64,000 bases of DNA, taken from Candidatus Thorarchaeota archaeon. GTDB lineage: Archaea > Asgardarchaeota > Thorarchaeia > Thorarchaeales > Thorarchaeaceae. Position 1 is the stretch's first letter. Every line of letters starts with the position of its first letter. The position numbers and the translations under genes are program-made. The stretch spans positions 1-64,000 of the forward strand of contig JAFGAR010000051.1 of assembly GCA_016933575.1 (NCBI GenBank), in the 5' to 3' direction. Under the pieces are notes generated by a model. That model did no database searches, was not told the DNA's origin, and saw only the letters and a list, made by a program, of their open reading frames with translations. Shown piece after piece: positions 1,086 to 13,810 of this stretch.

Positions 1086-2726
1086 CTAAGTACCCTCCAT
1101 TATAATTAACTGGTAAGTCCCAGGTTGTAGTGTTAGGCTATAATCACTACCAACAGGAACAAGGTTTCCGATAGAAACACCACCCGAGTAAACCGTGGCG
1201 ATTTCGTTAAAATTACTGAACATCAATTCAGCAGTATCATCAACTCGAATGTTTAGAATGAAACCAGATTTAATAGGGTCCCAATGGGCCTGATACACCC
1301 AGATATTGTCGTCATCTGCAGCACTGATAAATGGATAGTCCCAGAATTCAGCTGGACGGGCATCTGCAAGATCACGAACAGTGACAGGGAGCGTTGACCA
1401 GACCGAGAATCCCGAGAGAACAGGAGATAGAAATGGATCAAGAGAAGATCCATCATAATACAATTCCCTGCCATCCTGAGACCAGACCTTATTCACCATG
1501 TTTTGGAGGAGATTCGAGAGCCGGTCTCTTGTGTGATAGTCGCCCCTCTGGTTGGCAAGAACCATGGTAAAGACAGTGCCCAAAATTCCGAAGATGTCAC
1601 CAAAGGAACTAGGGTGTTTGTACGAACCTAGCATGTACATTGTATCCCCAGATATATCCCGCCCATAGAAATCAAGAAAAGTGGAGTATTTGGGAGTGGT
1701 GATGTCAGGGATGGTGTATTCGAGGAATGTCAGTGCCCATGCGGTTCCATAGGATGAAAGACTTGGACCTCCAGCTAGATGGTCAGCTGCTTGTCCTGGG
1801 ATCTCTTGGGGAAGTAAACCTGAATTTGGCCCCCACCCAACAGGTTTCTGAACAAAGTACCCATTTGTGTATAACCCATATTCATCAGTGATGTTGGCTT
1901 CGATGAAGTCTAATCCATAGTCCCACATACCGCTTTCCATGTAAGTTGTTCCATACATGTTATCATAGAGCTCAGTGGTATAGATGGGGATGCTGTTACA
2001 CTGTGCAAAGACAACATATGGTTCACAAGGAATCAAGCCAGTACCCCAGAGACCTCCGGGTTTTGGACTTCCAAGGCGGTCTGTCGTTGTTGAGTTCTCC
2101 CAATCAACTATGTAGCTACTCAATTCAGATTCCATAGTTCCGAAGTTGAAATTGCGTTCATACAGTGCAAGCATCAAGGCATAGTGGCCAGTCCACATGA
2201 TGTTCGCAGGACCTCTAAAGCCACCAGTGTACACATCGTTCCCATCGGGATGGGTCGCATTTGGAAAGTAATAGTCAACAAAACCGGGAATAGACACCCA
2301 CTCATAGTATTCCATTGAGTCATTTCCGTACTCTGCGATTGTTGTGTTCATTCTCCGAATCTGCGAGTAAGCGAAATCCTCATAGAAGGCGGTCCTATAA
2401 CCGGATGTTGTTTCACAGAAACCAGCAAATGGGTATGCAAGGAATGCGTTGATGTATTGAAGTGCCCAAAGATAGTTCTCAGCATGCCAGCCATCCCAGA
2501 GATTGTATGCCTGTCCGGTCACAAGTCTATCAAAGTAATTGATTATGGCAATCTGCTCATGGGTCAATGCAGGATAATCTGCAAAATTAAAAGTGGTTCC
2601 TGCAATGACTTGAATTCCAGTTGGAGTGCTTGGTGTAGACATGTTACCGAATGTCATACCACCAATCACAATCACAATGACAAAAGAACTGATTACGAAC
2701 TTGTTTTTCTGAAAGACTTGGGACAT
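1086..2726 (-). CDS. Linalool dehydratase/isomerase-like secreted or membrane-anchored protein
   Basis: NIMWTGH..LM..LY and IPCEPYVVFAQCNS resemble the LDI motifs NIMYKGH and CEPDNYFVQCNS; N-terminal hydrophobic segment. Confidence 0.75.
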   Translation of the reverse strand: MSQVFQKNKFVISSFVIVIVIGGMTFGNMSTPSTPTGIQVIAGTTFNFADYPALTHEQIAIINYFDRLVTGQAYNLWDGWHAENYLWALQYINAFLAYPFAGFCETTSGYRTAFYEDFAYSQIRRMNTTIAEYGNDSMEYYEWVSIPGFVDYYFPNATHPDGNDVYTGGFRGPANIMWTGHYALMLALYERNFNFGTMESELSSYIVDWENSTTTDRLGSPKPGGLWGTGLIPCEPYVVFAQCNSIPIYTTELYDNMYGTTYMESGMWDYGLDFIEANITDEYGLYTNGYFVQKPVGWGPNSGLLPQEIPGQAADHLAGGPSLSSYGTAWALTFLEYTIPDITTPKYSTFLDFYGRDISGDTMYMLGSYKHPSSFGDIFGILGTVFTMVLANQRGDYHTRDRLSNLLQNMVNKVWSQDGRELYYDGSSLDPFLSPVLSGFSVWSTLPVTVRDLADARPAEFWDYPFISAADDDNIWVYQAHWDPIKSGFILNIRVDDTAELMFSNFNEIATVYSGGVSIGNLVPVGSDYSLTLQPGTYQLIIMEGT

Positions 2727-2863
2727 CGAAGATCACACCGATGGAATTAGTGGTTTATGGAACGAAGGGAGTCTATCAAAGACTGCGTCAGTACCATAAA
2801 TAGTTTGCAGATTTTGGAATTATTCTTCGACTATTGCCGTTGTAGGTCACCCAATAACCCTGC

Positions 2864-3727
2864 TCAAGATGACAGCTCTGTTTCTGGATCGATGTGAACT
2901 GTGAGTTCGATGAATTTGGACTCCTTCCGTAAGTCTTCTTCTAAAAGATCAATGATATCATGAGCCTTTCTAACACTCATGGAGTCTTCCACTGTAAGAT
3001 GAACTTCAGCAAGCACATAGTTGCCCTGTCTACGGGTCTTTAGATCATGATATTCGATAATTATGTCATTGTATCTCCCCAGGACATTCTTGATTGTATT
3101 TTCCTCTTCTTCACAGGACTGATCCATAAGACGACGCAGTGAGCGTATGACCAATCCTACACCCATTCTAGCAATCAATGTAGCCACTAAAAATGCCAGC
3201 AATGCGTCCATGACCTGCCAGCCTGTCAACTGCACTATAATGAGCCCAACCCACACGCCTGCAGTGGATATCACATCAGATAGGAGATGCTTTGCATCGC
3301 CCTCCAAAGCAATAGACCCACTCTCCTTTGAAGTACGCATCAATAAGAGAGAGATGCCTGCATTGATTCCGGTTGCAATGACAGATATACCAATTGCAAG
3401 GTTCAGTTCTACGAGCTCCACTGAAACAAAGAGCCTTCCAGCAGCGGCATTTACAATAAGAAGAGCAGCAACAATTATGAAAATACCTTCAAAGCCACTC
3501 GAGATGTCCTCGATCTTTTGATGACCATAGTTATGAGTGTCATCAGGAGGCTTTTCTGAGATATATATCGAGAAGAACATCATTACTGAAGCAACAATAT
3601 TGACCACAGATTCAAGAGCGTCAGATAGTAATGCCACCGAATTAGATATGAAATACGCAAGGAGCTTGATAGCAAAAACGGAAAGACCCCCAATAATGGC
3701 TAACAAGGCTGCCTGATTCTTCTTCAT
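2864..3727 (-). CDS. Cation diffusion facilitator (CDF) transporter
   Basis: SVALLSDALES, HNYGHQKIE, DAKHLLSD, VHIDP; likely ATG at 3727. Confidence 0.92.
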   Translation of the reverse strand: MKKNQAALLAIIGGLSVFAIKLLAYFISNSVALLSDALESVVNIVASVMMFFSIYISEKPPDDTHNYGHQKIEDISSGFEGIFIIVAALLIVNAAAGRLFVSVELVELNLAIGISVIATGINAGISLLLMRTSKESGSIALEGDAKHLLSDVISTAGVWVGLIIVQLTGWQVMDALLAFLVATLIARMGVGLVIRSLRRLMDQSCEEEENTIKNVLGRYNDIIIEYHDLKTRRQGNYVLAEVHLTVEDSMSVRKAHDIIDLLEEDLRKESKFIELTVHIDPETELSS

Positions 3728-3992
3728 GGTCAACAGAGTGCCATCAAGCGGATTCGCTTTTAGGTATTGTTTAATTACCAATGATTGAAGCACAGAAAAA
3801 AAACATGACTTTTGCATCGACACCTGTTAGAGTAGTAGTTACTATAGTGATGAACTACAAAATAGGATTCGAAGATGGCTGAAACGTATGACTTGGTTTA
3901 AGTCAATAGTCTTTTTCAAAATGGCGTAGTTAGTAGACTTTTAAACAAAAAACCAAGTCTGCGCTTGATAATACCTAGAGGAGAGGTATCAA

Positions 3993-4907
3993 ATGAAATC
4001 TACTTCGACAAACAATCGATTTGCCGTCATAGACAATCCAACAGATGAAGAGATGAAAGAATTTGAGAAGAGGTTTGACTCCTATAACATGGAGCAAACA
4101 AATGGAGAGTATAATAGTCCTGAAGAATGGTTAAGTCTAGTACTCAGAGATAAAAATGGCAATATTGTAGGAGGAATTCAGACCAGTACTCTCTTCTGGG
4201 CGCAGTATCTTGAGGTACTATGGGTGGATGAGAGATTTCGAAGACTTGGATATGGGAGAGATCTCATTGAAGAGGCTGAGAGATTGGCAAGAGAAAATGG
4301 CTGTCTTGCATCGCAGACGTACACCTTCTCATGGCAAGGTGGAAACTTCTACCAAGCAGTTGGATACAAGCTGATAGCTACCTATGATGGATATGTTGAA
4401 GAAATCAAGGAGTACATACTCTCCAAGCCTCTGCACAAACCTGTAGAATCTCGGAGATCAGACCCGATTCGATTCAAAGTATCTAAAGATAATAGTGAGG
4501 AATCAAAAAAAATTGTGCAAAAAGGCTTAGGAAAGAACTTTGATGACAATGTTGCTGATATACTAAAGAGGTATCCACATCTGAGTATTGGGCTTATTAT
4601 CAAGAATCAGGACGGGAAAGTCATTGGAGGACTATCAGGCTATTCATCCCTTGGAACGATGAATATCGCTAGTATCTGGGTTGATGAAAAATATAGAAAC
4701 AAGGGCTATGGAAAAGATCTCATGGTATATGCTGAGAAAGTTGCAAAGGAAAGAGAATGTATTTCACTTCAGTCAGCATGTTTCACATTTCAGAATCTTG
4801 ACTTCATGTTCAATTATGGATTTGAACCATATGGCTTGTCAGATGTGTATCCAAAGGGAGAAAAAGAGTACTATCTGATCAAGAGGTTCAAGAAAGATCA
4901 GATTTGA
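3993..4907 (+). CDS. Tandem double-GNAT N-acetyltransferase
   Basis: Two copies of the WVDE.(F/Y)R..GYG acetyl-CoA motif. Confidence 0.88.
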   Translation: MKSTSTNNRFAVIDNPTDEEMKEFEKRFDSYNMEQTNGEYNSPEEWLSLVLRDKNGNIVGGIQTSTLFWAQYLEVLWVDERFRRLGYGRDLIEEAERLARENGCLASQTYTFSWQGGNFYQAVGYKLIATYDGYVEEIKEYILSKPLHKPVESRRSDPIRFKVSKDNSEESKKIVQKGLGKNFDDNVADILKRYPHLSIGLIIKNQDGKVIGGLSGYSSLGTMNIASIWVDEKYRNKGYGKDLMVYAEKVAKERECISLQSACFTFQNLDFMFNYGFEPYGLSDVYPKGEKEYYLIKRFKKDQI

Positions 4908-5015
4908 TTTTGACCCAGCAGCTGTAATAGATAAGTCACCTAAAGGCATCTTTTCCTCTGATAATGAGGTTTATCAGGTAGAACAATCAATGGTCAAAAG
5001 TTGCGGGTGAACTGA

Positions 5016-5990
5016 ATGATTAAGACAAGAGTAACTGAAATGTTGGGATGTAAATATCCAATCATATCTGGCACTATGGCTAGAATCTCTAATCCCGAAT
5101 TTGTAGCAGCTGCCAGTAATGCTGGTGCTTGTGCGGTACTGGCAAGTGCAAATTACAAAACTCCTGATGCGCTGCGTGATGCAATCAAAAAGACCCGAAC
5201 TCTGACAAATCAACCTTTTGCAGTAAATATCAATCTGTTCCCCGCGCTAATGCCTCAAGATAAGCTGGAGGATTATGTAGATGCTACATTAGCAGAAGGC
5301 GTGAAAATAATTGAAACAAGCGGTCATAAAGCACCTGAAGACCTAGTTCCGAAATTCAAGAACAGCGGTGCAATTTGGATTCATAAGTGTGCTGGAGTAA
5401 GGTATGCAAAGAAAGGAGCATCCTTAGGCGCAGATATCGTAACGGTGGTTGGATATGAGAATGGCGGAGCTACTGGTGTTCTTGATATAGGAACGATGGT
5501 AATGACTCCTTCAGTGGTTGACGCTCTTGATGTTCCTGTGATTGCAGGCGGTGGAATAACAGACGGCAGAGGTGTTGCTGCAATCTTAGCGCTTGGTGCG
5601 GAGGGAGTAATTATGGGAACAAGGATGATGGCAACCAAAGAGTGTCCCATTCATGATAATCTGAAACAGGCATTCATTCAAGCAGTGGAAACGGATACTG
5701 TCTTAGCGCTACGCTCTGTTGGAAACACCCATAGAATATGGAATAATAAAGCAGCACAAAATCTTCTCGAGCTTGAATCTCAAAAAGCACCATTATTCAC
5801 GCTCATCCAAGCAGCATCAGGAGAGAAGGCACAAAAGATGTATAATGAGGGCGACCTCGACATTGGCATTGTGAGTTGTGGTCAAGGTGTGGGATTAGTC
5901 AAAGATATCCCTACTGTGAAGGAGTTACTGGATAGAATTATGACAGAGACTGAAGAGGTAATATCACGATTCAATAGCCGATTCAGCTAA
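5016..5990 (+). CDS. Nitronate monooxygenase / FabK-like flavoenzyme
   Basis: PFAVNI, PVIAGGGITDGRG, GAEGVIMGTR, SCGQGVGL. Confidence 0.9.
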   Translation: MIKTRVTEMLGCKYPIISGTMARISNPEFVAAASNAGACAVLASANYKTPDALRDAIKKTRTLTNQPFAVNINLFPALMPQDKLEDYVDATLAEGVKIIETSGHKAPEDLVPKFKNSGAIWIHKCAGVRYAKKGASLGADIVTVVGYENGGATGVLDIGTMVMTPSVVDALDVPVIAGGGITDGRGVAAILALGAEGVIMGTRMMATKECPIHDNLKQAFIQAVETDTVLALRSVGNTHRIWNNKAAQNLLELESQKAPLFTLIQAASGEKAQKMYNEGDLDIGIVSCGQGVGLVKDIPTVKELLDRIMTETEEVISRFNSRFS

Positions 5991-6003
5991 AATAGAGAAA
6001 AGA

Positions 6004-6027
6004 TGGCGGATCAGACGGATTTTGAAT
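6004..6027 (-). repeat. Degenerate copy of tRNA-Lys 3' exon (att-like scar 3)
   Basis: TGGCGGATCAGACGGATTTTGAAT vs 9367-9390 TGGCGGGCCAGACGGGATTTGAAT, 20/24 identical; both preceded by AAGA. Confidence 0.8.
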
Positions 6028-6068
6028 CATTAGATATATTTTCATAATGTTTCCTAGAATCAATCAAT

Positions 6069-6830
6069 ATGAGGCTAGAGAGAATGGACAGATGGAAGTA
6101 TTATGATATTACACACAAGTATCATATTCTCTGCAATCCACTAAGTAATGAGAAATTCGAACGATTCTGTGACCTACTCAGTCTATCGAAAGGCTCACGA
6201 GTCCTTGACATCGCATGTGGAAAGGGAGAAGTCTTAGTCAGATTGGTAGAAAAATACAGAATCTCAGGTGTAGGAGTTGACATTTCTCCGTTTTATATCA
6301 GAGATTGTAAAGAAAAACATCGTCAAAGAGCCTCTAAGACTGATTTGACTTTCATCGAATTGGATGGTGCAAAATATCAACCTGCATCTGGTGAACTATT
6401 CGATGTAGTGATGTGTTTGGGAGCAAGCTGGGTCTTCGAGGATCACATTGGAACTCTCAGAGCTCTTAGAAAAATGGCGAGACCCGGGGGTCTTGTGATT
6501 GTTGGTGAGCCTTTTTGGTTGAAAGAACCTGACACGGAATATCTTGAGGCCGCAAGCATGACTCATGATTTCTCTCGTTCACATGAAGAAAATGTATGCC
6601 AAGGTGAAGAGATTGGACTCAACTGCCTCTATACACTTGTGTCTAACAAAGATGATTGGGATCACTATGAGACTCTTCAGTGGTGGGCTGTTGATAATTA
6701 TATCCAATCACATAGAGATGATCCAGACAATCAGGAACTCCTTGAAAAGACCAAGATGGAGAAAGAACTCTATCTAAGGTGGGGCAGAGATATTATCAAC
6801 TGGGCAGTGTATATCTTTAGAAATCCATAG
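6069..6830 (+). CDS. Class I SAM-dependent methyltransferase
   Basis: VLDIACGKG motif I, GVDIS, FDVVMC, RPGG. Confidence 0.9.
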   Translation: MRLERMDRWKYYDITHKYHILCNPLSNEKFERFCDLLSLSKGSRVLDIACGKGEVLVRLVEKYRISGVGVDISPFYIRDCKEKHRQRASKTDLTFIELDGAKYQPASGELFDVVMCLGASWVFEDHIGTLRALRKMARPGGLVIVGEPFWLKEPDTEYLEAASMTHDFSRSHEENVCQGEEIGLNCLYTLVSNKDDWDHYETLQWWAVDNYIQSHRDDPDNQELLEKTKMEKELYLRWGRDIINWAVYIFRNP

Positions 6831-6837
6831 AAAGAGA

Positions 6838-6856
6838 TGGCGGGCTAGGAGGATTT
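6838..6856 (-). repeat. Degenerate copy of tRNA-Lys 3' exon (att-like scar 2)
   Basis: (AGA)TGGCGGGCTAGGAGGATTT vs (AGA)TGGCGGGCCAGACGGGATTT, with one gap. Confidence 0.7.
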
Positions 6857-6864
6857 AACTGTAA

Positions 6865-7725
6865 TTAGATTTCTTTTGATTCTCTAATTTGTTTATAGAT
6901 TACTAGAATCAGCAGCAAAAGAGCGATACCATATATTATGCTAGCCTCCAGTCCTTGCCACCATGTATCAAATAAAGCAGGTAAGAAATTAAGAACTGCA
7001 TGGATAGTACCTACTAGATATAGCGACTTGATCTTGTCATATAGGAAACCTATGAATGAGAACAACAGGAAACCTGTTAGAATACCAGAGAGAGTAAGAG
7101 TTTGAACTAGACCATGAAATATTACAAAGATAACTGTGACCAAAATTATACCTGTGTATTGACCAAATCGATTAACTGCCTGAGTCTGTAAGTATCCTCT
7201 AAACAGGATCTCCTGCCAGAAACTGTTCAAGACATAGAATGTTATCGATGCAATTAACGTAGTTAAGGCAGGCCACTGACTGAAATCTGGATTCACAGGC
7301 AATTCAATTGTCCCTAGAAACACTCCAACTAGTGTAGCTCCAAAAAATAGAGCACATCCAATAATCACTCCCAATCCAAAAAAAGGCAAAGTATTGCGTT
7401 GTATATTCAAGCCAAGATCCGTTAGATGAAATTCTCGTTTCTCAATACGAGTGACTAGGAACAAAACTAGTAGGAGAATCAACAAGAGATCTAGTGCACT
7501 TGCTATTGCTTGGCCCTCGGATGATTCGGATACAAAGACTTGAGCATTTTGAGAGGCAACATTGAGAGGAGTCCCTTGTAGAATGTATATCTGCTGGACT
7601 ACAAGTATCAGTGAAATCCTACTGATGACTATAAGCAGAATTGTCATGAGAAGCGCTAGAGTAATCTTCCAAAAAAAACGAACTTCTCCTACGTCTGTTC
7701 TGAGTACCCTTTCCAAGCCAATCAA
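6865..7725 (-). CDS. CPBP (CAAX/Abi) family intramembrane protease
   Basis: QEILFRGY, F.IFH, HAVLN motifs; multiple TM helices. Confidence 0.85.
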   Translation of the reverse strand: MIGLERVLRTDVGEVRFFWKITLALLMTILLIVISRISLILVVQQIYILQGTPLNVASQNAQVFVSESSEGQAIASALDLLLILLLVLFLVTRIEKREFHLTDLGLNIQRNTLPFFGLGVIIGCALFFGATLVGVFLGTIELPVNPDFSQWPALTTLIASITFYVLNSFWQEILFRGYLQTQAVNRFGQYTGIILVTVIFVIFHGLVQTLTLSGILTGFLLFSFIGFLYDKIKSLYLVGTIHAVLNFLPALFDTWWQGLEASIIYGIALLLLILVIYKQIRESKEI

Positions 7726-7785
7726 CCTGATAGTATACGTACTCGTGGTATATTAGACGCTATGATTGAAGCAAGATTTGAATAA

Positions 7786-7806
7786 TGGCGGGACAGACGG
7801 GATTTG
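7786..7806 (-). repeat. Near-perfect copy of tRNA-Lys 3' exon (att-like scar 1)
   Basis: TGGCGGGACAGACGGGATTTG, 20/21 identical to 9367-9387. Confidence 0.9.
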
Positions 7807-7901
7807 TTTGAAATTCAAATTTAACTAGAAGTCAGTCTACCAACCAATTCAGATGGTTTATTATATAAGGAGGATATCTACATTAAAATTAGGGGAGCTT
7901 C

Positions 7902-9353
7902 TTGAAGAAATCTAGTCTTCTAACAGTTCTATTCGTTTTGGGAATCATATCTGCCACAAATTTCACTCCTATTGAACTAACCTCCATAGATCTGGATGAG
8001 TATCAGTATGTTTCAACAACAGTATCGTCATTCACACCACATGCAACGATATCAATATTGGAAAATGATGATTTCATATCACAGGGGTGGCCAGGTAATG
8101 GAACCGCGCAGTTTCCATACACCATAGAAGGATTAGAAATATCTACAGATAGTACTTGTATTAGGATAGAAAATACTAGTACATGTTTCATCATTAGAAA
8201 CTGCACGCTTTCTTCAACTACAAGTGGGAATGGAAATGGAATCTATCTGATAGGTGTAAGTAATGGGAGAATAGATAACTGCACTATATCTTCTCTCAGT
8301 TACGGAATCAGATCAACATCAATTATTGATTGTGTTTTTTCAAATAACACAATAACTAATTGCGCAAACTACGGTATCTATTCATATTCACCCGAAATAG
8401 TTTCAGATAACATCCTCTATGATTCAAATGAGATATACAACAATCATGGAAAGCCCATCTATCTTGCTGGTTCTAATAACGGGATGATTTTGAACAACTC
8501 AATCTATGAGAATGATGGGTACTTACGATTCTATATTGTCAATTATCTAGAGATTATCAACAACACGATATCAGGAAGTTCTACAGACGGTCTCTATTTG
8601 GACTTTACGTCAGGAATAAAAATTATTGGAAACAAAATCTATGGAAACATAGGTTATGGACTTAGAGTAAATACCTATGCACTCCAATCTAAAATTTACA
8701 ACAATATGATAGGCTTCAATGGTATAGGAAATGCCGTTGATAGTGGAATGTTTAACGATTGGGATAACGGAGAAGGTATAGGGAATATTTGGTCAGATTA
8801 TTCTGGAGTAGGAGACTATTCTGTTGGTGTAGGAAAGGATGAATATCCCTTGGGTTTTGTTAGTCGACCTAGTGATGTGCAGTACGAGATTGGTGAAGTA
8901 GTTTCCCCAATCACATGGGATGTAAGACTGCCAAATCCGGATTCGTACGCAATTTATTGGGAAGAATCTATGATTACTCAAAATACATTGAACTCATCAC
9001 TGGATCATTTATCAAAGACAATCGATGGTTTATCTATTGGAAGTTATAACCTAACTCTTGTTGTGAATGATGCATCAGGATACAGTCTTATCGATACAGT
9101 CATCATCACAGTAGTTGAAGAAATTACAACCACAACTACCACTACGACTACATCAACCACAACTACCACTACGACTACATCAACCCCCACAACTACAACG
9201 AGCACTACTACAAATACTGAAACTACGTCGACCACCACAAGCACAACTACTACTTCACAACCTCCACCTGATAGTACAATGATACTAGTTGTAGGAGCTG
9301 TGGGAATCATTTGCACAATAGTAGTCCTGATAATTTTCATCAAAAAGAAATAG
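7902..9353 (+). CDS. Cell-surface right-handed beta-helix (NosD/CASH-like) protein with Thr-rich stalk and C-terminal TM anchor
   Basis: Signal peptide, GWPGNGT...PY.I, repeated NN.I..N...GI, GNIWSDY, poly-Thr, TM helix + KKK. Confidence 0.85.
   Translation: MKKSSLLTVLFVLGIISATNFTPIELTSIDLDEYQYVSTTVSSFTPHATISILENDDFISQGWPGNGTAQFPYTIEGLEISTDSTCIRIENTSTCFIIRNCTLSSTTSGNGNGIYLIGVSNGRIDNCTISSLSYGIRSTSIIDCVFSNNTITNCANYGIYSYSPEIVSDNILYDSNEIYNNHGKPIYLAGSNNGMILNNSIYENDGYLRFYIVNYLEIINNTISGSSTDGLYLDFTSGIKIIGNKIYGNIGYGLRVNTYALQSKIYNNMIGFNGIGNAVDSGMFNDWDNGEGIGNIWSDYSGVGDYSVGVGKDEYPLGFVSRPSDVQYEIGEVVSPITWDVRLPNPDSYAIYWEESMITQNTLNSSLDHLSKTIDGLSIGSYNLTLVVNDASGYSLIDTVIITVVEEITTTTTTTTTSTTTTTTTTSTPTTTTSTTTNTETTSTTTSTTTTSQPPPDSTMILVVGAVGIICTIVVLIIFIKKK
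9129..9182 (+). repeat. 27-bp tandem repeat (x2) in the Thr-rich linker
   Basis: ACCACAACTACCACTACGACTACATCA occurs twice in tandem. Confidence 0.85.
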
Positions 9354-9366
9354 ATGCAGAACAAGA

Positions 9367-9502
9367 TGGCGGGCCAGACGGGATTTGAATTCGCTGGTTT
9401 GGTCGGATTGGCCAAACCTCCCGCGACCAACAAGTTAAGAGCTTCAACACACGAGAGAAGTTCTGCGTGTACTGTCGCTATACCTGGCTTAGCCACTGGC
9501 CC
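9367..9502 (-). tRNA. tRNA-Lys(CTT) with two non-canonical introns (30/31 at 9443-9471; 53/54 at 9390-9419), CCA encoded
   Basis: Spliced sequence GGGCCAG TG GCTAAGCCAGGTATAGC G ACAGG CTCTTAA CTTGT TGGTC GCGGG TTCAAAT CCCGT CTGGCCC G CCA (77 nt); both introns form hairpins with BHB-like junctions. Confidence 0.9.
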
Positions 9503-9554
9503 ACAGAGAGTGCTTTGCCTGTTTTGCGTTTATAGAGATTGCGGTGTTAACGAG
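9493..9554 (-). promoter_or_regulatory. tRNA-Lys promoter plus first 10 nt of the tRNA (repeat copy 1)
   Basis: Minus-strand TATAAA (plus-strand TTTATA ~9529-9534) ~27-32 nt upstream of tRNA +1; region duplicated at 9909-9970. Confidence 0.7.
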
Positions 9555-9655
9555 GTCTGTAGGTGCAAGCCTTGCGGTGAGAAAGATAGTAGCACAAATC
9601 GGCTGTGTACGTTAAGATTCTTGTTTAAAAGGAAGAAACTACATACTTTGTCTAG

Positions 9656-9853
9656 GTGGTCACAGTGGAGTGGGATTCTACTTCAACGCGCAATCTGCTT
9701 GTTCTTGGAATTTCGCTATTAATACTCGGAGCCTCTAGTGGGATTTCAGGCATGGTCTGGGTAGGTACCCTGCGATATTATTTTTTCATAGTAGGCGTCA
9801 CACTCGTAATAATGGCGGTGGTGTTCATGATAAAAGACCGTAGAACTCGTTGA
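9656..9853 (+). CDS. Small 2-TM membrane protein (paralog of 10674-10883)
   Basis: Two hydrophobic helices, basic tail; WVGTLRYYFFIVGVTL vs WVGILQYFLIILGVIL. Confidence 0.65.
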   Translation: MVTVEWDSTSTRNLLVLGISLLILGASSGISGMVWVGTLRYYFFIVGVTLVIMAVVFMIKDRRTR

Positions 9854-9908
9854 AGAGCGCAGAGAGCCATCAGAATGATTTCCTGTTTTCTATTCACTCT
9901 CACTTCCT

Positions 9909-9970
9909 CCACTGGCCCACAGAACGCCCTTTGCCTGTTTTGCGTTTATAGAGATTGTGGTGCTAACGAG
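9909..9970 (-). repeat. 62-bp direct repeat of the tRNA-Lys promoter and 5' end (copy 2)
   Basis: CCACTGGCCCACAGA...CTTTGCCTGTTTTGCGTTTATAGAGATTG.GGTG.TAACGAG shared with 9493-9554. Confidence 0.92.
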
Positions 9971-10105
9971 ATTTGAAGATAACAAACGACTATAGCCAGA
10001 GCTATTTTTGAGTATGATTCCTTTTTATCTTCTCAGACTTTCCAGTGAAAAGATTGAAGTTATTTCAATAGAGCTGCTATTTAGGTAATACTTGGAGTTT
10101 CGTCA

Positions 10106-10270
10106 ATGATGATATTATTACAAGAAAGCGAAGTAGTATTCATGTTTGGATATACGACCAAACCTTTCATTGTTTTAGTAATTGTAGTGATTTACATATA
10201 CCTTAGAAACCGGCGTAGAAATCAACGATTAGATGCAATTACTGAACCATTTGAGGAACAATCCTCGTGA
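10106..10270 (+). CDS. Small single-TM protein (54 aa, below the ORF-track cutoff)
   Basis: MMILLQESEVVFMFGYTTKPFIVLVIVVIYIYLRNRRRNQ...; TM helix followed by a basic cluster. Confidence 0.5.
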   Translation: MMILLQESEVVFMFGYTTKPFIVLVIVVIYIYLRNRRRNQRLDAITEPFEEQSS

Positions 10271-10362
10271 ATATTCTTGGCAAAAGCAGGGAGGGTTTTA
10301 TGATATCAAATGTACATTTGAGAAGAGTAGTTTCTGTAGCCGCAATTGTTGCTGTTGTATCC

Positions 10363-10650
10363 TCAGGCGGTTGATAACATACTGGACTTGTAGATCATAG
10401 CAAAAATACCAGATATCAGTATTAGTAATCCGCTTGGGAAGATAAAGAAAATACCTGCAGTACCAACCAGAATTGGACCCGTCGAATACGGAGGTTTGGC
10501 AGCCCAATACAATTGAGTCCAGTATGAATCAAGAAGTATTCCAGTTATTGCTACAATCGCGCCTACAAAGATGAGAGTAATTTCTTTGGGACAGGCTAGA
10601 ATATTGTAATGATTCATTAAATCATCATCTAATAATTGAATAAAGTTCAT
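10363..10650 (-). CDS. Small 2-TM hypothetical membrane protein
   Basis: Two hydrophobic segments; start uncertain. Confidence 0.45.
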   Translation of the reverse strand: MNFIQLLDDDLMNHYNILACPKEITLIFVGAIVAITGILLDSYWTQLYWAAKPPYSTGPILVGTAGIFFIFPSGLLILISGIFAMIYKSSMLSTA

Positions 10651-10673
10651 ATCAGTCTAATTATAGAACTAAA

Positions 10674-10883
10674 GTGGTTACAATGGAACGGAACTCTTTA
10701 CTGATGGTCATTCTTCTTTTTCTTGGAGTTGTGTGTGTCATAATAGCAGGTCTTAGCCCAGGTCAAGATATTGCTCCTGAGTGGGTAGGCATACTGCAAT
10801 ATTTCTTGATTATATTGGGGGTCATACTCATAACAGCAGCTATCATTTTCAGGCAAATCATGAACTCTAAATCAAAGAGATAA
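10674..10883 (+). CDS. Small 2-TM membrane protein (paralog of 9656-9853)
   Basis: Shared MVT.E start and WVG.L.Y..I.GV.L motif. Confidence 0.65.
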   Translation: MVTMERNSLLMVILLFLGVVCVIIAGLSPGQDIAPEWVGILQYFLIILGVILITAAIIFRQIMNSKSKR

Positions 10884-10991
10884 AATCTGTTTATTGTGAA
10901 TTGCTCCAAGCCCCTAAGTCTGTTTGTGAAAGGATATTTATTCTTTCAAGAAAATCCTAATTCAGGAGATCGTTAGGAAGGATTGTGAGAT

Positions 10992-11309
10992 ATGACTACA
11001 ATTTGTCCATACTGTAGAGAAGATTTGAGATTGGAACTGACTGCACAATTTGTGGAGAGAGTTGATACCGCTATAACAGACCTGTATCCAGAAGAACTGG
11101 AAAGATTGCAAAAGAGAGCTGCGATTCAAGGAGGCATGTATGGTGGCATGATGAAGATGGCTGCTGGAATGGCCAAGGGAATGCAGAGTACAATGATTCA
11201 TATGATGCAAGGGATAGTTGAGTATCCACCAATTGTCACTATTCTGAAGTGTATGAATTGCGGTGCAGCACTCTCTGTCGATATGCCAACTTCTGGTAGT
11301 TCTAAGTGA
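10992..11309 (+). CDS. Hypothetical protein with split zinc ribbon
   Basis: CPYC at the N-terminus and CMNC at the C-terminus, separated by a Met/Gly-rich helix. Confidence 0.7.
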   Translation: MTTICPYCREDLRLELTAQFVERVDTAITDLYPEELERLQKRAAIQGGMYGGMMKMAAGMAKGMQSTMIHMMQGIVEYPPIVTILKCMNCGAALSVDMPTSGSSK

Positions 11310-11343
11310 TAGGTGTAAGGGAATACCTTTCATTCTAAGAAAT

Positions 11344-12330
11344 CTAAGATTTTGGTTCAGGTGTCCAACGAATAGCACGTGGAGCGCGGGAAGCTCCGCA
11401 AATGCGACAGAACTTGTCAGAGGGGAGGATTGGTTTGCCGCACTTTTTACATGGCTCGATTCCTTCATCCTTCTCAGCAGAAGAATCAGGTGCTGGAGGC
11501 GATACATGTTTCCCATCTACACTCATAGATGATGTAGACTTCATCTCATCAGTATAACCCCACAGTTTCTGTAGCATACTACGAATCTGTAATAGGTCCT
11601 TCCTATATTGCTCAAACTCTCTGTCTTTCTCGAGTCTTTCGCTGATTTCCTTTAGCTTGTTCAGACACCAGACCATTGGTTTCTGTTTTATAAGAAGAGC
11701 TTGCAGTGCCTTCAAGTCTGGCTCTTTGTCTTTGAGTTTTGGTAATTTTTTCCCCTTGTGTTGTACAGTCTTGGTTGGTAACCTTGTCTGTTGTCGCATC
11801 TCAGCTAGAGGCGAGATGGCTGTGGCAGAAAAGGGATCTTCTTTCGATGCGAGAAAAGGAGTACCAGGTGCGACTCCACTCAGCACAAGGAGTGCAGGAT
11901 GTTCTGAGAATTCATCAGATTGTAACTCCTTTGTGATTGAGATGTGTATTATTACCCCTTGATGCTCTACAAACAGAGCAGTGTAATCTATGATGTCAGA
12001 ACCACCATATATCGCTCCAGCTCTTGGTGCTATTTTCCAGAGGGCAATAGCCATGATGTCCTCAGGTATCAGTCCGTTATAGGCTAGACAGCCCATCCCA
12101 TTTATTTCAAACTGAGCCTGTGAATAAAGTGGAGCAAGATAATCAGATTCAGCAATGACTTCATCGAGACTGGACGCAGAATATAGGTAGTAGAGTACCT
12201 CTACTTCCTCTTGAGGTGAGTGTGCGATGATGCAATTCGCTTGCATTTCAGGGAGAGTCGATTGTTCAACAGACCAATTATCAGGTAACGATAGTACAAA
12301 AGGAGCCCCCGGAATTCCGAAATCACCCAT
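11344..12330 (-). CDS. Hypothetical protein with C-terminal zinc ribbon
   Basis: CKKCG...KFCRICGA at the C-terminus; GGAGA SD-like site upstream. Confidence 0.7.
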   Translation of the reverse strand: MGDFGIPGAPFVLSLPDNWSVEQSTLPEMQANCIIAHSPQEEVEVLYYLYSASSLDEVIAESDYLAPLYSQAQFEINGMGCLAYNGLIPEDIMAIALWKIAPRAGAIYGGSDIIDYTALFVEHQGVIIHISITKELQSDEFSEHPALLVLSGVAPGTPFLASKEDPFSATAISPLAEMRQQTRLPTKTVQHKGKKLPKLKDKEPDLKALQALLIKQKPMVWCLNKLKEISERLEKDREFEQYRKDLLQIRSMLQKLWGYTDEMKSTSSMSVDGKHVSPPAPDSSAEKDEGIEPCKKCGKPILPSDKFCRICGASRAPRAIRWTPEPKS

Positions 12331-12472
12331 ATTATTCTCCTCAGATAATTTTTGAATTGAAAACTATTAGAAACGAATTCCTAAAAATATATGCAAAAAA
12401 ACATAGCGAGTTTGGAGCATAGGTCGTAAGCCATATAACGAAGCTAACTTTAGCTCAGAGTATCTTTAGGAC

Positions 12473-13810
12473 ATGGAGTCGCTAGGTATGGGCGAACACA
12501 AGAAGCTTTACGATCAAGTATTTGAACTTTTAGAGAAACATGATGATTGGATGTCTAAAACAATTAACCTCATTGCCTCGGAGAATGTGAGTTCACCAGC
12601 GGTCAGGTCAGCTATTGTTTGTGACTTCAGAGACCGCTATGCAGAGGGATGGCCCGGTGAGCGGGTCTATGCAGGGTGTAAGTACATAGACGAGGTCGAG
12701 CTGATAACCATCGATCTAGCAAAGAAGCTCTATAGAGCGGAATTTGCAGATGTACGGCCTATCTCTGGAGTGGTTGCTAATCTTGCAATGTATACTGCAG
12801 CCATGGAACCAATGGATAGAATGATGGCATTATCCATTGCACATGGAGGTCATATCTCTCATGCAAGAAAAGACCTGGGTGGGACTGCAGGTCAGATACG
12901 AGGACACAAGGTACGAAATTGGGTGTTCAACGATGAGGAATTCAACATTGATGTTGATGCTAGCATGAAGCAGATCAAGGACCTTCAAGAGAAGGGAGAT
13001 GAAATCAAATTCCTCCTCTTTGGTGGAAGCGTATTCCCCTTTCCACACCCTGTGAAGGAGTTCAGAGAGATTGCTGATGAGTACGGCATGACAATTGGGT
13101 ATGACTCAGCCCATGTATCAGGCCTCATCGCATCAGGATTCTTCCAAGATCCATTGAGAGAGGGTGCTGATATGATGACCACATCTACACACAAGACATT
13201 GCCTGGGCCTCAGCATGCAATGATCCTTGCAAAGGAGGAATTTGCTGACCGGATTAAGAGAGCCTCATTCCCAGGTCTCTTGAGTAATCACCACCTCCAC
13301 AACGTTGCCGGTCTTGCCATTGCCCTGGCTGAGATGATTGAGTTTGGAGTAGAGTATAGCAAGCAGATTATGAAGAATGCAAAGGCACTTGCACAGTCAC
13401 TACATGAGAGAGGATGGCAGGTCATTGCTGAGCACAAGGGATTCACTCAGTCCCACGTAGTCCTTGTTGATGTCACTGAAACTCCATTAGGTGATGGAGC
13501 CAAATGTGAAGAAACGTTGGAAGATGCAAATATCGTCATCAACCGCAATCTCCTTCCATGGGATAAGAAGAGAGGCCGGGACTACAAGACTCCAGGCGGA
13601 ATCCGTCTTGGAACAAGTGAGATGACTCGTCTTGGAATGAAAGAGTCTGAGATGGATGAGATTGCAGAGTTCATGACGAGAGTGGTCATGAAAGGTGAAG
13701 ATGTGAAAAAGGTTACAGCAGAGATTGGAGAATTCAGGAAGGACTACCAGAAGGTCCACTATGCATTCGAAAATGAAACTCCAGCCTATGCACATCTACG
13801 ATTCAAGTAA
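12473..13810 (+). CDS. glyA: Serine hydroxymethyltransferase
   Basis: LIASEN, YAEG.PG.R.Y.GC, STHKTLPGP, GIRLGT. Confidence 0.97.
   Translation: MESLGMGEHKKLYDQVFELLEKHDDWMSKTINLIASENVSSPAVRSAIVCDFRDRYAEGWPGERVYAGCKYIDEVELITIDLAKKLYRAEFADVRPISGVVANLAMYTAAMEPMDRMMALSIAHGGHISHARKDLGGTAGQIRGHKVRNWVFNDEEFNIDVDASMKQIKDLQEKGDEIKFLLFGGSVFPFPHPVKEFREIADEYGMTIGYDSAHVSGLIASGFFQDPLREGADMMTTSTHKTLPGPQHAMILAKEEFADRIKRASFPGLLSNHHLHNVAGLAIALAEMIEFGVEYSKQIMKNAKALAQSLHERGWQVIAEHKGFTQSHVVLVDVTETPLGDGAKCEETLEDANIVINRNLLPWDKKRGRDYKTPGGIRLGTSEMTRLGMKESEMDEIAEFMTRVVMKGEDVKKVTAEIGEFRKDYQKVHYAFENETPAYAHLRFK

Follow-up and report, generated by a model that had tools for sequence, protein, structure and literature searches.

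The tRNA-Lys(CUU) gene of a Candidatus Thorarchaeota archaeon appears to form the fixed end of an additive, integron-like gene-capture island. The island is built on the 3' exon of this tRNA and runs from position 9366 to about position 2727 of a 64,000-nucleotide stretch (contig JAFGAR010000051.1 of assembly GCA_016933575.1, positions 1 to 64,000), hereafter the window. We put the probability of this reading at about three in four. It draws on copies of the tRNA 3' end that punctuate the island, on the single genes between these copies, and on related genomes in which the same locus is empty or holds a differing series of units with boundaries at the repeats.

The anchor gene lies at 9367-9502 on the minus strand and is interrupted by two non-canonical introns, because of which neither ARAGORN nor Rfam calls a tRNA at this position. 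The first intron (9471-9443, 29 nt) is located in the anticodon stem and the second (9419-9390, 30 nt) between the T-stem and the T-loop, so that the exons are 9502-9472, 9442-9420 and 9389-9367. With both introns taken out, the spliced product of 77 nt folds as tRNA-Lys(CTT), and its CCA is encoded in the gene. The repeated unit is the third exon (9389-9367, 23 nt), and all copies have the orientation of the tRNA. As 24-mers, the copies at 7786-7809 and 6004-6027 have mismatches at 3/24 and 4/24 positions, and the chance expectation for such copies, from 100 shuffles, is none. A 30-nt weight matrix made from the repeat copies of relatives was applied to the whole window and gave only four scores of at least 5 bits, all on the minus strand: 47 bits for the tRNA itself (9363-9392), 33.5 bits at 7782-7811, 26.3 bits at 6000-6029 and 13.0 bits at 6834-6863. 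The runner-up in the 64 kb reached 3.5 bits, and the motif is thus not equally common elsewhere. An earlier note on this DNA had reported co-oriented tRNA-Lys 3'-end copies at 7786, 6838 and 6004, and the matrix bears it out.

The tRNA-proximal site, att0 (9363-9389, minus strand), comprises exon 3 and about 4 nt downstream of it and would act as the chromosomal attachment site, in a role like that of attI. The repeat of cassette 1, att1 (7786-7808, minus strand), has 3 mismatches to the 23-nt exon 3, which fall among four T-loop-side bases and one acceptor-strand base. The repeat of cassette 3, att3 (6004-6026, minus strand), matches at 19/23 positions. Between them lies att2 (6838-6860, minus strand), the repeat of cassette 2, which has the T-stem variant of a tRNA-Lys allele from another species together with a 1-nt deletion. 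The earlier note had taken this copy for a degenerate one; at 13.0 bits it is a genuine repeat, and the foreign T-stem variant rules out a decayed copy of this genome's own tRNA. A further weak trace that the note had seen near 4896 is noise, since the matrix gives it -10 bits and places no repeat at 4887-4916.

Each repeat-to-repeat interval in the window contains one gene, as had been proposed. Cassette 1 (7809-9366, plus strand) consists of a gene for a beta-helix/NosD-type surface protein (7902-9353; PF13229/PF05048) and its own upstream region. The protein has a Thr-rich stalk and a C-terminal anchor, and homologues were found in the arrays of relatives. Cassette 2 (6861-7785, minus strand) holds the gene of a CPBP/Rce1-like membrane protease (6865-7725, minus strand; PF02517), the upstream region of which is conserved in the CPBP cassettes of relatives; these cassettes are bounded by repeats in L014, L022 and L013. 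Cassette 3 (6027-6837, plus strand) contains the gene of a methyltransferase (MT) dependent on S-adenosylmethionine (6069-6830; Pfam), preceded by an AT-rich, TATA-like upstream region of its own (6027-6068). Unit 4 (4908-6003, plus strand) holds the gene of a flavoenzyme of the nitronate monooxygenase (NMO) family (5016-5990; PF03060). Its distal repeat is not recognisable in the window, and the suggestion that the flavoenzyme was possibly a unit is strengthened by L014, where NMO has repeats on both sides. The gaps from stop codon to repeat in the plus-strand genes are 13, 7 and 13 nt, within the 7-13 nt noted earlier.

The tRNA-Lys(CUU) 3' end was sought by pattern search in 86 genomes of the Thorarchaeota family, and clustered, co-oriented copies were found in many of them. 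The comparative set comprised 20 loci and then 14 more, all oriented with the tRNA reading rightwards. Among these 34 related Thorarchaeota loci, the tRNA-Lys locus holds from 0 to 6 or more cassette units. The site is empty in L026, L027 and L028, from two other genera, where the order is serine hydroxymethyltransferase (SHMT), tRNA-Lys and, directly after the tRNA, an Ldi-like gene, with a gap of less than 0.2 kb between these last two. This pair of flanks encloses 3 to 6 or more units in other genomes. The empty site may be ancestral or may result from a clean loss.

The same flanks are present in the window, with SHMT at 12473-13810 (plus strand) on the proximal side and the Ldi-like gene at 1086-2726 (minus strand) on the distal side. 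Six genes separate the tRNA from the Ldi-like gene here: beta-helix, CPBP, MT, NMO, a double-GNAT acetyltransferase (3993-4907, plus strand) and a cation-efflux (CDF) transporter (2864-3823, minus strand). The last two make up the distal part of the island (2727-4907). They sit between the tRNA and the Ldi-like flank and are missing from the empty-site genomes; no repeat is recognisable in their spacers, where the best matrix scores are below -10.

The units at this locus come from a shared pool of cassette families, which includes MT, NMO, CPBP, beta-helix, a VIT1-family protein, DinB, GNAT, family F8, an M29 peptidase, an HTH_10 regulator, a beta-propeller protein and several unknowns. Shared families occur in differing orders and with differing neighbours. 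Reading outward from the tRNA, the window has beta-helix, CPBP, MT and NMO; G037 has the beta-propeller protein, CPBP, NMO and the flank; G035 has F8, MT, VIT1, DinB and F37, with NMO further out; and G043 has MT and beta-helix. Gene order is therefore not fixed, with 0 to 6 or more cassettes in differing arrangements. NMO is present in the arrays of 10 relatives, across genera, at 85-92% protein identity. It is nearly always distal, and the units near the tRNA are the most variable; NMO looks old and vertically inherited.

The arrays are regular and polar. At a threshold of 10 bits the matrix matched 61 times in the forward direction versus 3 times in reverse (21 loci). When ORFs (open reading frames) of at least 60 aa were counted in the 71 repeat-to-repeat intervals of the 34 loci, 51 intervals (72%) held exactly one, nine held two and seven held none. 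Intervals measure 333 to 4211 bp (median 836 bp), and those with one gene have a median coding fraction of 0.87. Of the one-gene cassettes, 32 are antisense to the tRNA and 19 are sense. The repeat score declines with distance from the tRNA in 19 of the 20 arrays that have at least three copies, as expected from the outward decay described in the earlier note. We report this as a trend and not as a test, since the genomes are related to one another and selection acts on the tRNA itself.

Breakpoints between genomes fall at the repeats. Homology of the flanks between species (81-93% identity) ends 1 nt past the CCA of the tRNA, and the homology of the MT cassette spans left repeat to right repeat in eight genomes, with a different right-hand neighbour in each. 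The conserved part of the MT cassette begins directly after the CCA of the tRNA-proximal repeat, 8-12 nt before the stop codon, covers the gene and 40-60 nt upstream of it, and terminates with the CCA of the distal repeat. From these boundaries it follows that the unit is made up of the gene, set between a spacer and its upstream region, and of a repeat of its own on the tRNA-distal side. Cassettes generally have 40-100 nt of upstream sequence of their own. A scan of metagenomes yielded only three contigs, one of which, L030, has an MT cassette with 93% DNA identity to that of the window, whereas identity between their NMO genes is only 80%. The cassette adjoins the tRNA as the first of its array in L030 but is third in the window, and the alignment of the two extends from inside the left repeat to 4 nt beyond the right CCA.

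MT homologues of at least 68% identity, in MAGs (metagenome-assembled genomes) of Thorarchaeota type, mostly have repeats on both sides, and no repeats flank the homologues of 33-60% identity found in Helarchaeota, Bathyarchaeia, Methanosuratincola and Dehalococcoidia. This pattern indicates that an ordinary, widespread gene was captured as a cassette in this lineage. Additionally, homologues of 47-54% identity were observed in Dehalococcoidia and other Chloroflexota (L050-L058, L061), values comparable to or above those of several other archaeal phyla (45-60%). This hints at a transfer of the MT gene between domains, before or after its capture.

The repeat copies are mostly short (19-30 nt, with one of 40 nt), and their left edge varies over the range of 19 to 40 nt. 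Intron DNA from other tRNA-Lys alleles is present in a few, which were therefore copied from DNA and not from mature tRNA. Among 26 cassette repeats, the match to the resident tRNA at positions 57-76 is 62-100% per position and mostly at least 85%; the minimum of 62% is at position 64, which belongs to the T stem, and directly past the CCA the first base matches in 73%. In half of these repeats the longest perfect run shared with the resident tRNA is at most 13 nt. Cassette repeats often have a T-stem variant that is foreign to the host, and the tRNA retains the one complementary to its own 5' strand. Exchange is most likely confined to the invariant last 11-14 nt, to which the linkage of variants within the repeats points, in a pattern that is not clean enough to pin the exchange point. 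No attC-like folding was present in six 65-nt stretches around three repeats on both strands (z -0.87 to +1.34 versus shuffles).

The introns of the anchor gene are themselves variable. The tRNA-Lys(CUU) alleles of close relatives, compared in the window and in L010, L012, L013, L014, L017, L019, L025 and L026, have 0 to 3 introns each at five or more positions, among them the anticodon stem, the canonical position 37/38, the variable region, 53/54 and 56/57. Introns in the T-arm border the attachment site and reduce the unbroken match with cassette repeats to 20-23 nt, and the 40 nt retained by the downstream repeat at L010:10380 contain an intron that belongs to a different allele. These observations would fit a process in which integration drives intron turnover and introns hinder integration. 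That integration drives the turnover of tRNA introns has been suggested previously (PMC3293823).

We propose that what moves is a single gene, together with its own upstream (promoter) region and a single copy of the last 20-23 nt of the tRNA plus 1-4 nt, and that the repeat is placed on the side facing away from the tRNA. Such a unit, probably as a circular intermediate, would enter when its repeat recombines with the repeat at the tRNA 3' end, so that the tRNA is rebuilt and earlier units are pushed outward. Recombination between two repeats would account for loss and reshuffling. The exchange would most likely take place in the invariant last 11-14 nt, i.e. the acceptor strand, the CCA and a few bases beyond, because the T-stem variants of the cassettes differ from that of the tRNA, yet the tRNA keeps its own. 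The array and its surroundings do not encode the catalyst. The likeliest candidate is a site-specific recombinase acting in trans, from an unbinned mobile element or of an unrecognised family, for which we see somewhat less than an even chance; short-homology recombination by the host ranks second.

Similar arrays are found at other anchors in this genome. The earlier note had suggested a scan downstream of other tRNAs, and 3'-end copies were indeed found 0.8-6 kb downstream of tRNA-Thr(CGU), tRNA-Ala(UGC) and Val-type tRNAs, mostly with one gene between. Together with tRNA-Leu(UAG), these anchors lie on contigs C7 (58683/59473; 97984/98826), C45 (77497/78973), C88 (163/6203/7774), C118 (2551/5415) and C64 (171897/172376) of this genome (G000). 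On contig C139 (about 1790-7700), the repeated element appears to be a protein-gene 3' end of about 66 nt with a T-rich tail, present at 1855, 3061 and 7661 and partly at 5290; copies are spaced by 1.2-2.4 kb, with one to three ORFs between them. Several anchors make the array a general phenomenon in this organism, which weakens the case for a single sequence-specific integrase and leaves several enzymes, an unrecognised enzyme or host recombination. No gene family is common to the surroundings of arrays at different anchors in this genome. Homologues of the Lys-array cassettes, which the earlier note had proposed to look for beside other tRNA scars, do not adjoin tRNA 3'-end copies where they are located elsewhere in this genome. 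More tentatively, Thorarchaeota and perhaps other Asgard archaea could have a general system that stacks one-gene circles behind the 3' ends of several tRNA and protein genes, with an unrecognised recombinase or no dedicated one; we regard this as possible and rather doubtful.

A few further observations were made at these anchors. Counting tRNA-Leu(UAG) as well, tRNA copies occur at 0.3-6 kb, mostly with a single gene between; the two Leu copies are inverted and upstream of the tRNA. The cargo includes a PycTM-like effector with a SatD-like protein, a TPR protein and an 890-aa repeat protein. The ends of C88 and C118 share the same 62 nt of the 3' half of a Val-type tRNA and then continue into different cassettes, forming an assembly fork at the anchor. 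This could reflect either two gene copies or strain-level differences in cassettes within the sample.

Several points weigh against the gene-capture island as we read it. The compared genomes are kin and the counts from them are not independent. The repeats of the window are partly decayed, with 3, about 8 and 4 mismatches, and this rather decayed array may be inactive. No recombinase was found: the window contains no match to PF00589 or PF16795, in agreement with the earlier note, which saw no integrase gene there, and the single PF00589 match in the genome (3.47 Mb, 215 contigs, 85.5% complete, with introns in many tRNA genes) is on a contig of 1.4 kb. The integrase on that contig, C189, was considered and rejected as a candidate, given a weak match and no repeat nearby. 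PF16795, PF00239 and PF01797 have no matches in this genome. Among the 86 family genomes, only 29 have a tyrosine recombinase and 23 a serine recombinase, and G040, G035, G032 and G042, which have sharp arrays, have neither; all of the recombinase genes, tyrosine and serine, lie on contigs other than those with arrays. Within about 8 kb of eighteen tyrosine-recombinase loci of the family, neither a tRNA gene nor a copy of a tRNA 3' end is convincingly present, one locus having only a doubtful ARAGORN call of tRNA-Ser and two weak motif matches. By Pfam, neither the recurrent cassette families nor the genes that separate SHMT from the tRNA include anything like a recombinase. The repeat is not in IMG/VR viral contigs, which were searched with two alleles, and neither the 86 MAGs nor IMG/VR yielded a helper element that shares the site. 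Neither an excised circle nor an empty junction was seen in assembled Logan contigs, which barely cover the locus.

MAGs often lose plasmids and viruses, and this leaves room for an enzyme supplied in trans. Neither a tyrosine nor a serine recombinase is detectable in the majority of array-bearing genomes, so a tyrosine integrase acting in trans is a conjecture. Several of the family genomes without PF00589 are 93-99% complete, and the lineage appears to be without a universal dimer resolvase of XerA type. A low-depth contig (X2) from freshwater sediment of a different study joins position 7707 back to 6083, which places the CPBP 5' end against the MT 5' end. It could represent another cassette order in a relative or a circle of two cassettes; as one contig found at a lenient likeness setting, it is not counted here.

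The same array could also have formed without any dedicated recombinase, by host homologous or short-homology recombination between tRNA 3'-end copies, through which cassette circles would integrate, excise and change order. This would proceed through Campbell-type single crossovers and unequal crossing-over, and anchors at 3' ends would survive because the target gene stays intact. The lack of detectable tyrosine or serine recombinases in most array genomes agrees with this, as do the variable left edge of the repeat and the finding that no gene family is common to the surroundings of different anchors. A process indifferent to sequence would also be easier to reconcile with unrelated anchors that each have their own repeats, namely tRNA-Lys, Thr, Ala and Val-type and the 66-nt protein-gene 3' end. 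Perfect runs of at most 13 nt in half of the repeats are, however, short for strand-exchange proteins, although later decay could explain them, and the foreign T-stem variants kept in cassettes next to a tRNA with its own variant point to exchange in the last 11-14 nt. Host recombination also leaves unexplained how a gene first acquires its repeat. We consider it unlikely, with a chance that is still substantial.

A second alternative is that the intervals are eroded remains of integrase-bearing elements (proviruses, plasmids or tycheposon-like elements) that inserted serially at tRNA-Lys and of which later deletion left a single gene each. That elements accrete in tandem at tRNA genes and leave partial tRNA repeats behind is well documented (10.1101/2020.12.28.424599; PMC4898812), and the 40-nt repeat of L010, which includes an intron from another tRNA-Lys allele, resembles a tRNA 3' end that was once in place and has since been displaced. 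Yet neither an integrase gene nor a fragment of one is present on any array contig among the 86 genomes, and remnants of integrase-bearing elements were not found in any locus. With this, none of the four outcomes that the earlier note had listed as refuting its reading was seen. Moreover, the same one-gene unit is met between the same two boundaries across many genomes and contexts, a constancy that erosion acting independently on each copy would not yield, and one ORF per interval in 72% of cases with a coding fraction of 0.87 is also hard to reconcile with it; erosion on this scale seems very improbable to us. Less probable still are copies that arose from reverse transcription primed by or copied from mature tRNA-Lys. 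The conserved part covers positions 57-76, starts at about 57-58 in the T-loop and includes the CCA, cassette repeats have an uninterrupted T-loop even where the tRNA gene has a T-loop intron, and the genome has two reverse-transcriptase genes. The gene itself, however, already encodes the CCA, intron DNA occurs in some copies, the units contain promoters and spacers with genes in both orientations, and neither reverse transcriptase of this genome is near an array.

The gene-capture island most resembles the additive flexible genomic islands that occur at tRNA genes in Alteromonas, marked by partial tRNA repeats (PMC4898812), and the tycheposons of Prochlorococcus, for which a model of proximal insertion and outward pushing has been described (10.1101/2020.12.28.424599). 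As in those systems, a tRNA gene is at the proximal end, partial tRNA sequences form direct repeats, newcomers would push older units outward, variability is highest near the tRNA, and the sharing of cassettes between species does not follow the core phylogeny. The island described here has an intact tRNA with direct repeats of its 3' part downstream and in its orientation, and among relatives the content varies and the site is empty in some. The known islands differ in having elements with their own integrases (937 integrase-bearing elements in Prochlorococcus), usually multi-gene inserts and scattered partial tRNAs, whereas the array described here, in an Asgard host, has regular units of mostly one gene and about 0.35-2.3 kb, each closed by a repeat, and no integrase or remnants of one in the island. 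Across the 34 loci, there is also no tRNA-specific tyrosine recombinase together with a replication, packaging or cargo module of the tycheposon kind.

Integrons, which are present in archaea (Ghaly et al., 10.1101/2022.02.06.479319), offer a second comparison. Whether sedentary chromosomal integrons, clusters of attC sites lacking an integrase (CALIN) or archaeal integrons are considered, they share with the island cassettes of mostly a single gene, one site at a fixed end, one anchor and accessory cargo. Here too, mostly one-gene cassettes are gained, lost and reordered at sites. In contrast, integrons have IntI beside the array, and no PF00589 match was found on array contigs of the 86 genomes. 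Their attC sites form hairpins, whereas the site here is a copy of a tRNA 3' exon without hairpin folding. Integron cassettes are promoterless, lie in one orientation and rely on a common promoter (Pc), while the cassettes here have their own upstream regions (putative promoters) and occur in both orientations.

Cis-mobilizable and integrative mobilizable elements (CIMEs/IMEs) at tRNA genes (PMC5704250) and composite islands of the staphylococcal cassette chromosome (SCC) type are also integrase-less, att-bounded units stacked at one site, although the units here are far smaller and more regular. Units of this kind are thought to be moved in cis or trans by the recombinase of another element (PMC5704250). 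Archaeal tRNA-targeting integrases of the 'suicidal' SSV type and the pNOB8 type use 3' parts of tRNA genes as att sites (PMC8371274, PMC7253208), and the tRNA-disruption model of Sugahara et al. (PMC3293823) likewise involves displaced tRNA fragments and intron turnover at the targeted gene. In SSV-type elements, split halves of the integrase flank the insert; none are found here, and there are no element-sized inserts. Asgard mobile elements at tRNA genes are larger and have an integrase or giant genes (PMC8813620). In the literature searched, no description of regular one-gene arrays bounded by tRNA exons in archaea was found.

How Asgard archaea gain accessory genes, many of them of bacterial origin, is an open question, and to our knowledge few of their mobile elements have been described. 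The tRNA-Lys locus is a concrete site at which genes are gained, lost and reshuffled one at a time with defined boundaries in dozens of genomes, and gene flow can be measured there. If the catalyst is new or unneeded, the locus would represent a second, independently evolved route to an integron-like platform. A general system of this kind, if it exists, would be a functional analogue of integrons that evolved independently in the closest prokaryotic relatives of eukaryotes and would drive the turnover of tRNA introns beside the attachment site. The link between cassette insertion and variable intron positions is relevant to a long-standing proposal, in which introns of archaeal tRNA genes impede integration. 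As a tool, the short site derived from the tRNA might be useful too.

The other side of the anchor gene is variable as well. From the 5' end of the tRNA to SHMT (9503-12472), the window has small membrane ORFs and a zinc-ribbon protein, with no noteworthy family matches by Pfam. This stretch amounts to 3 kb in the window compared with about 0.1 kb in the empty-site loci L027 and L028. Two copies of an ORF for a small two-helix membrane protein are located here, at 9656-9853 and 10674-10883, upstream of the tRNA. A partial copy of the tRNA 5' half was observed in L013, 1.1 kb upstream of the gene (L013:6436).

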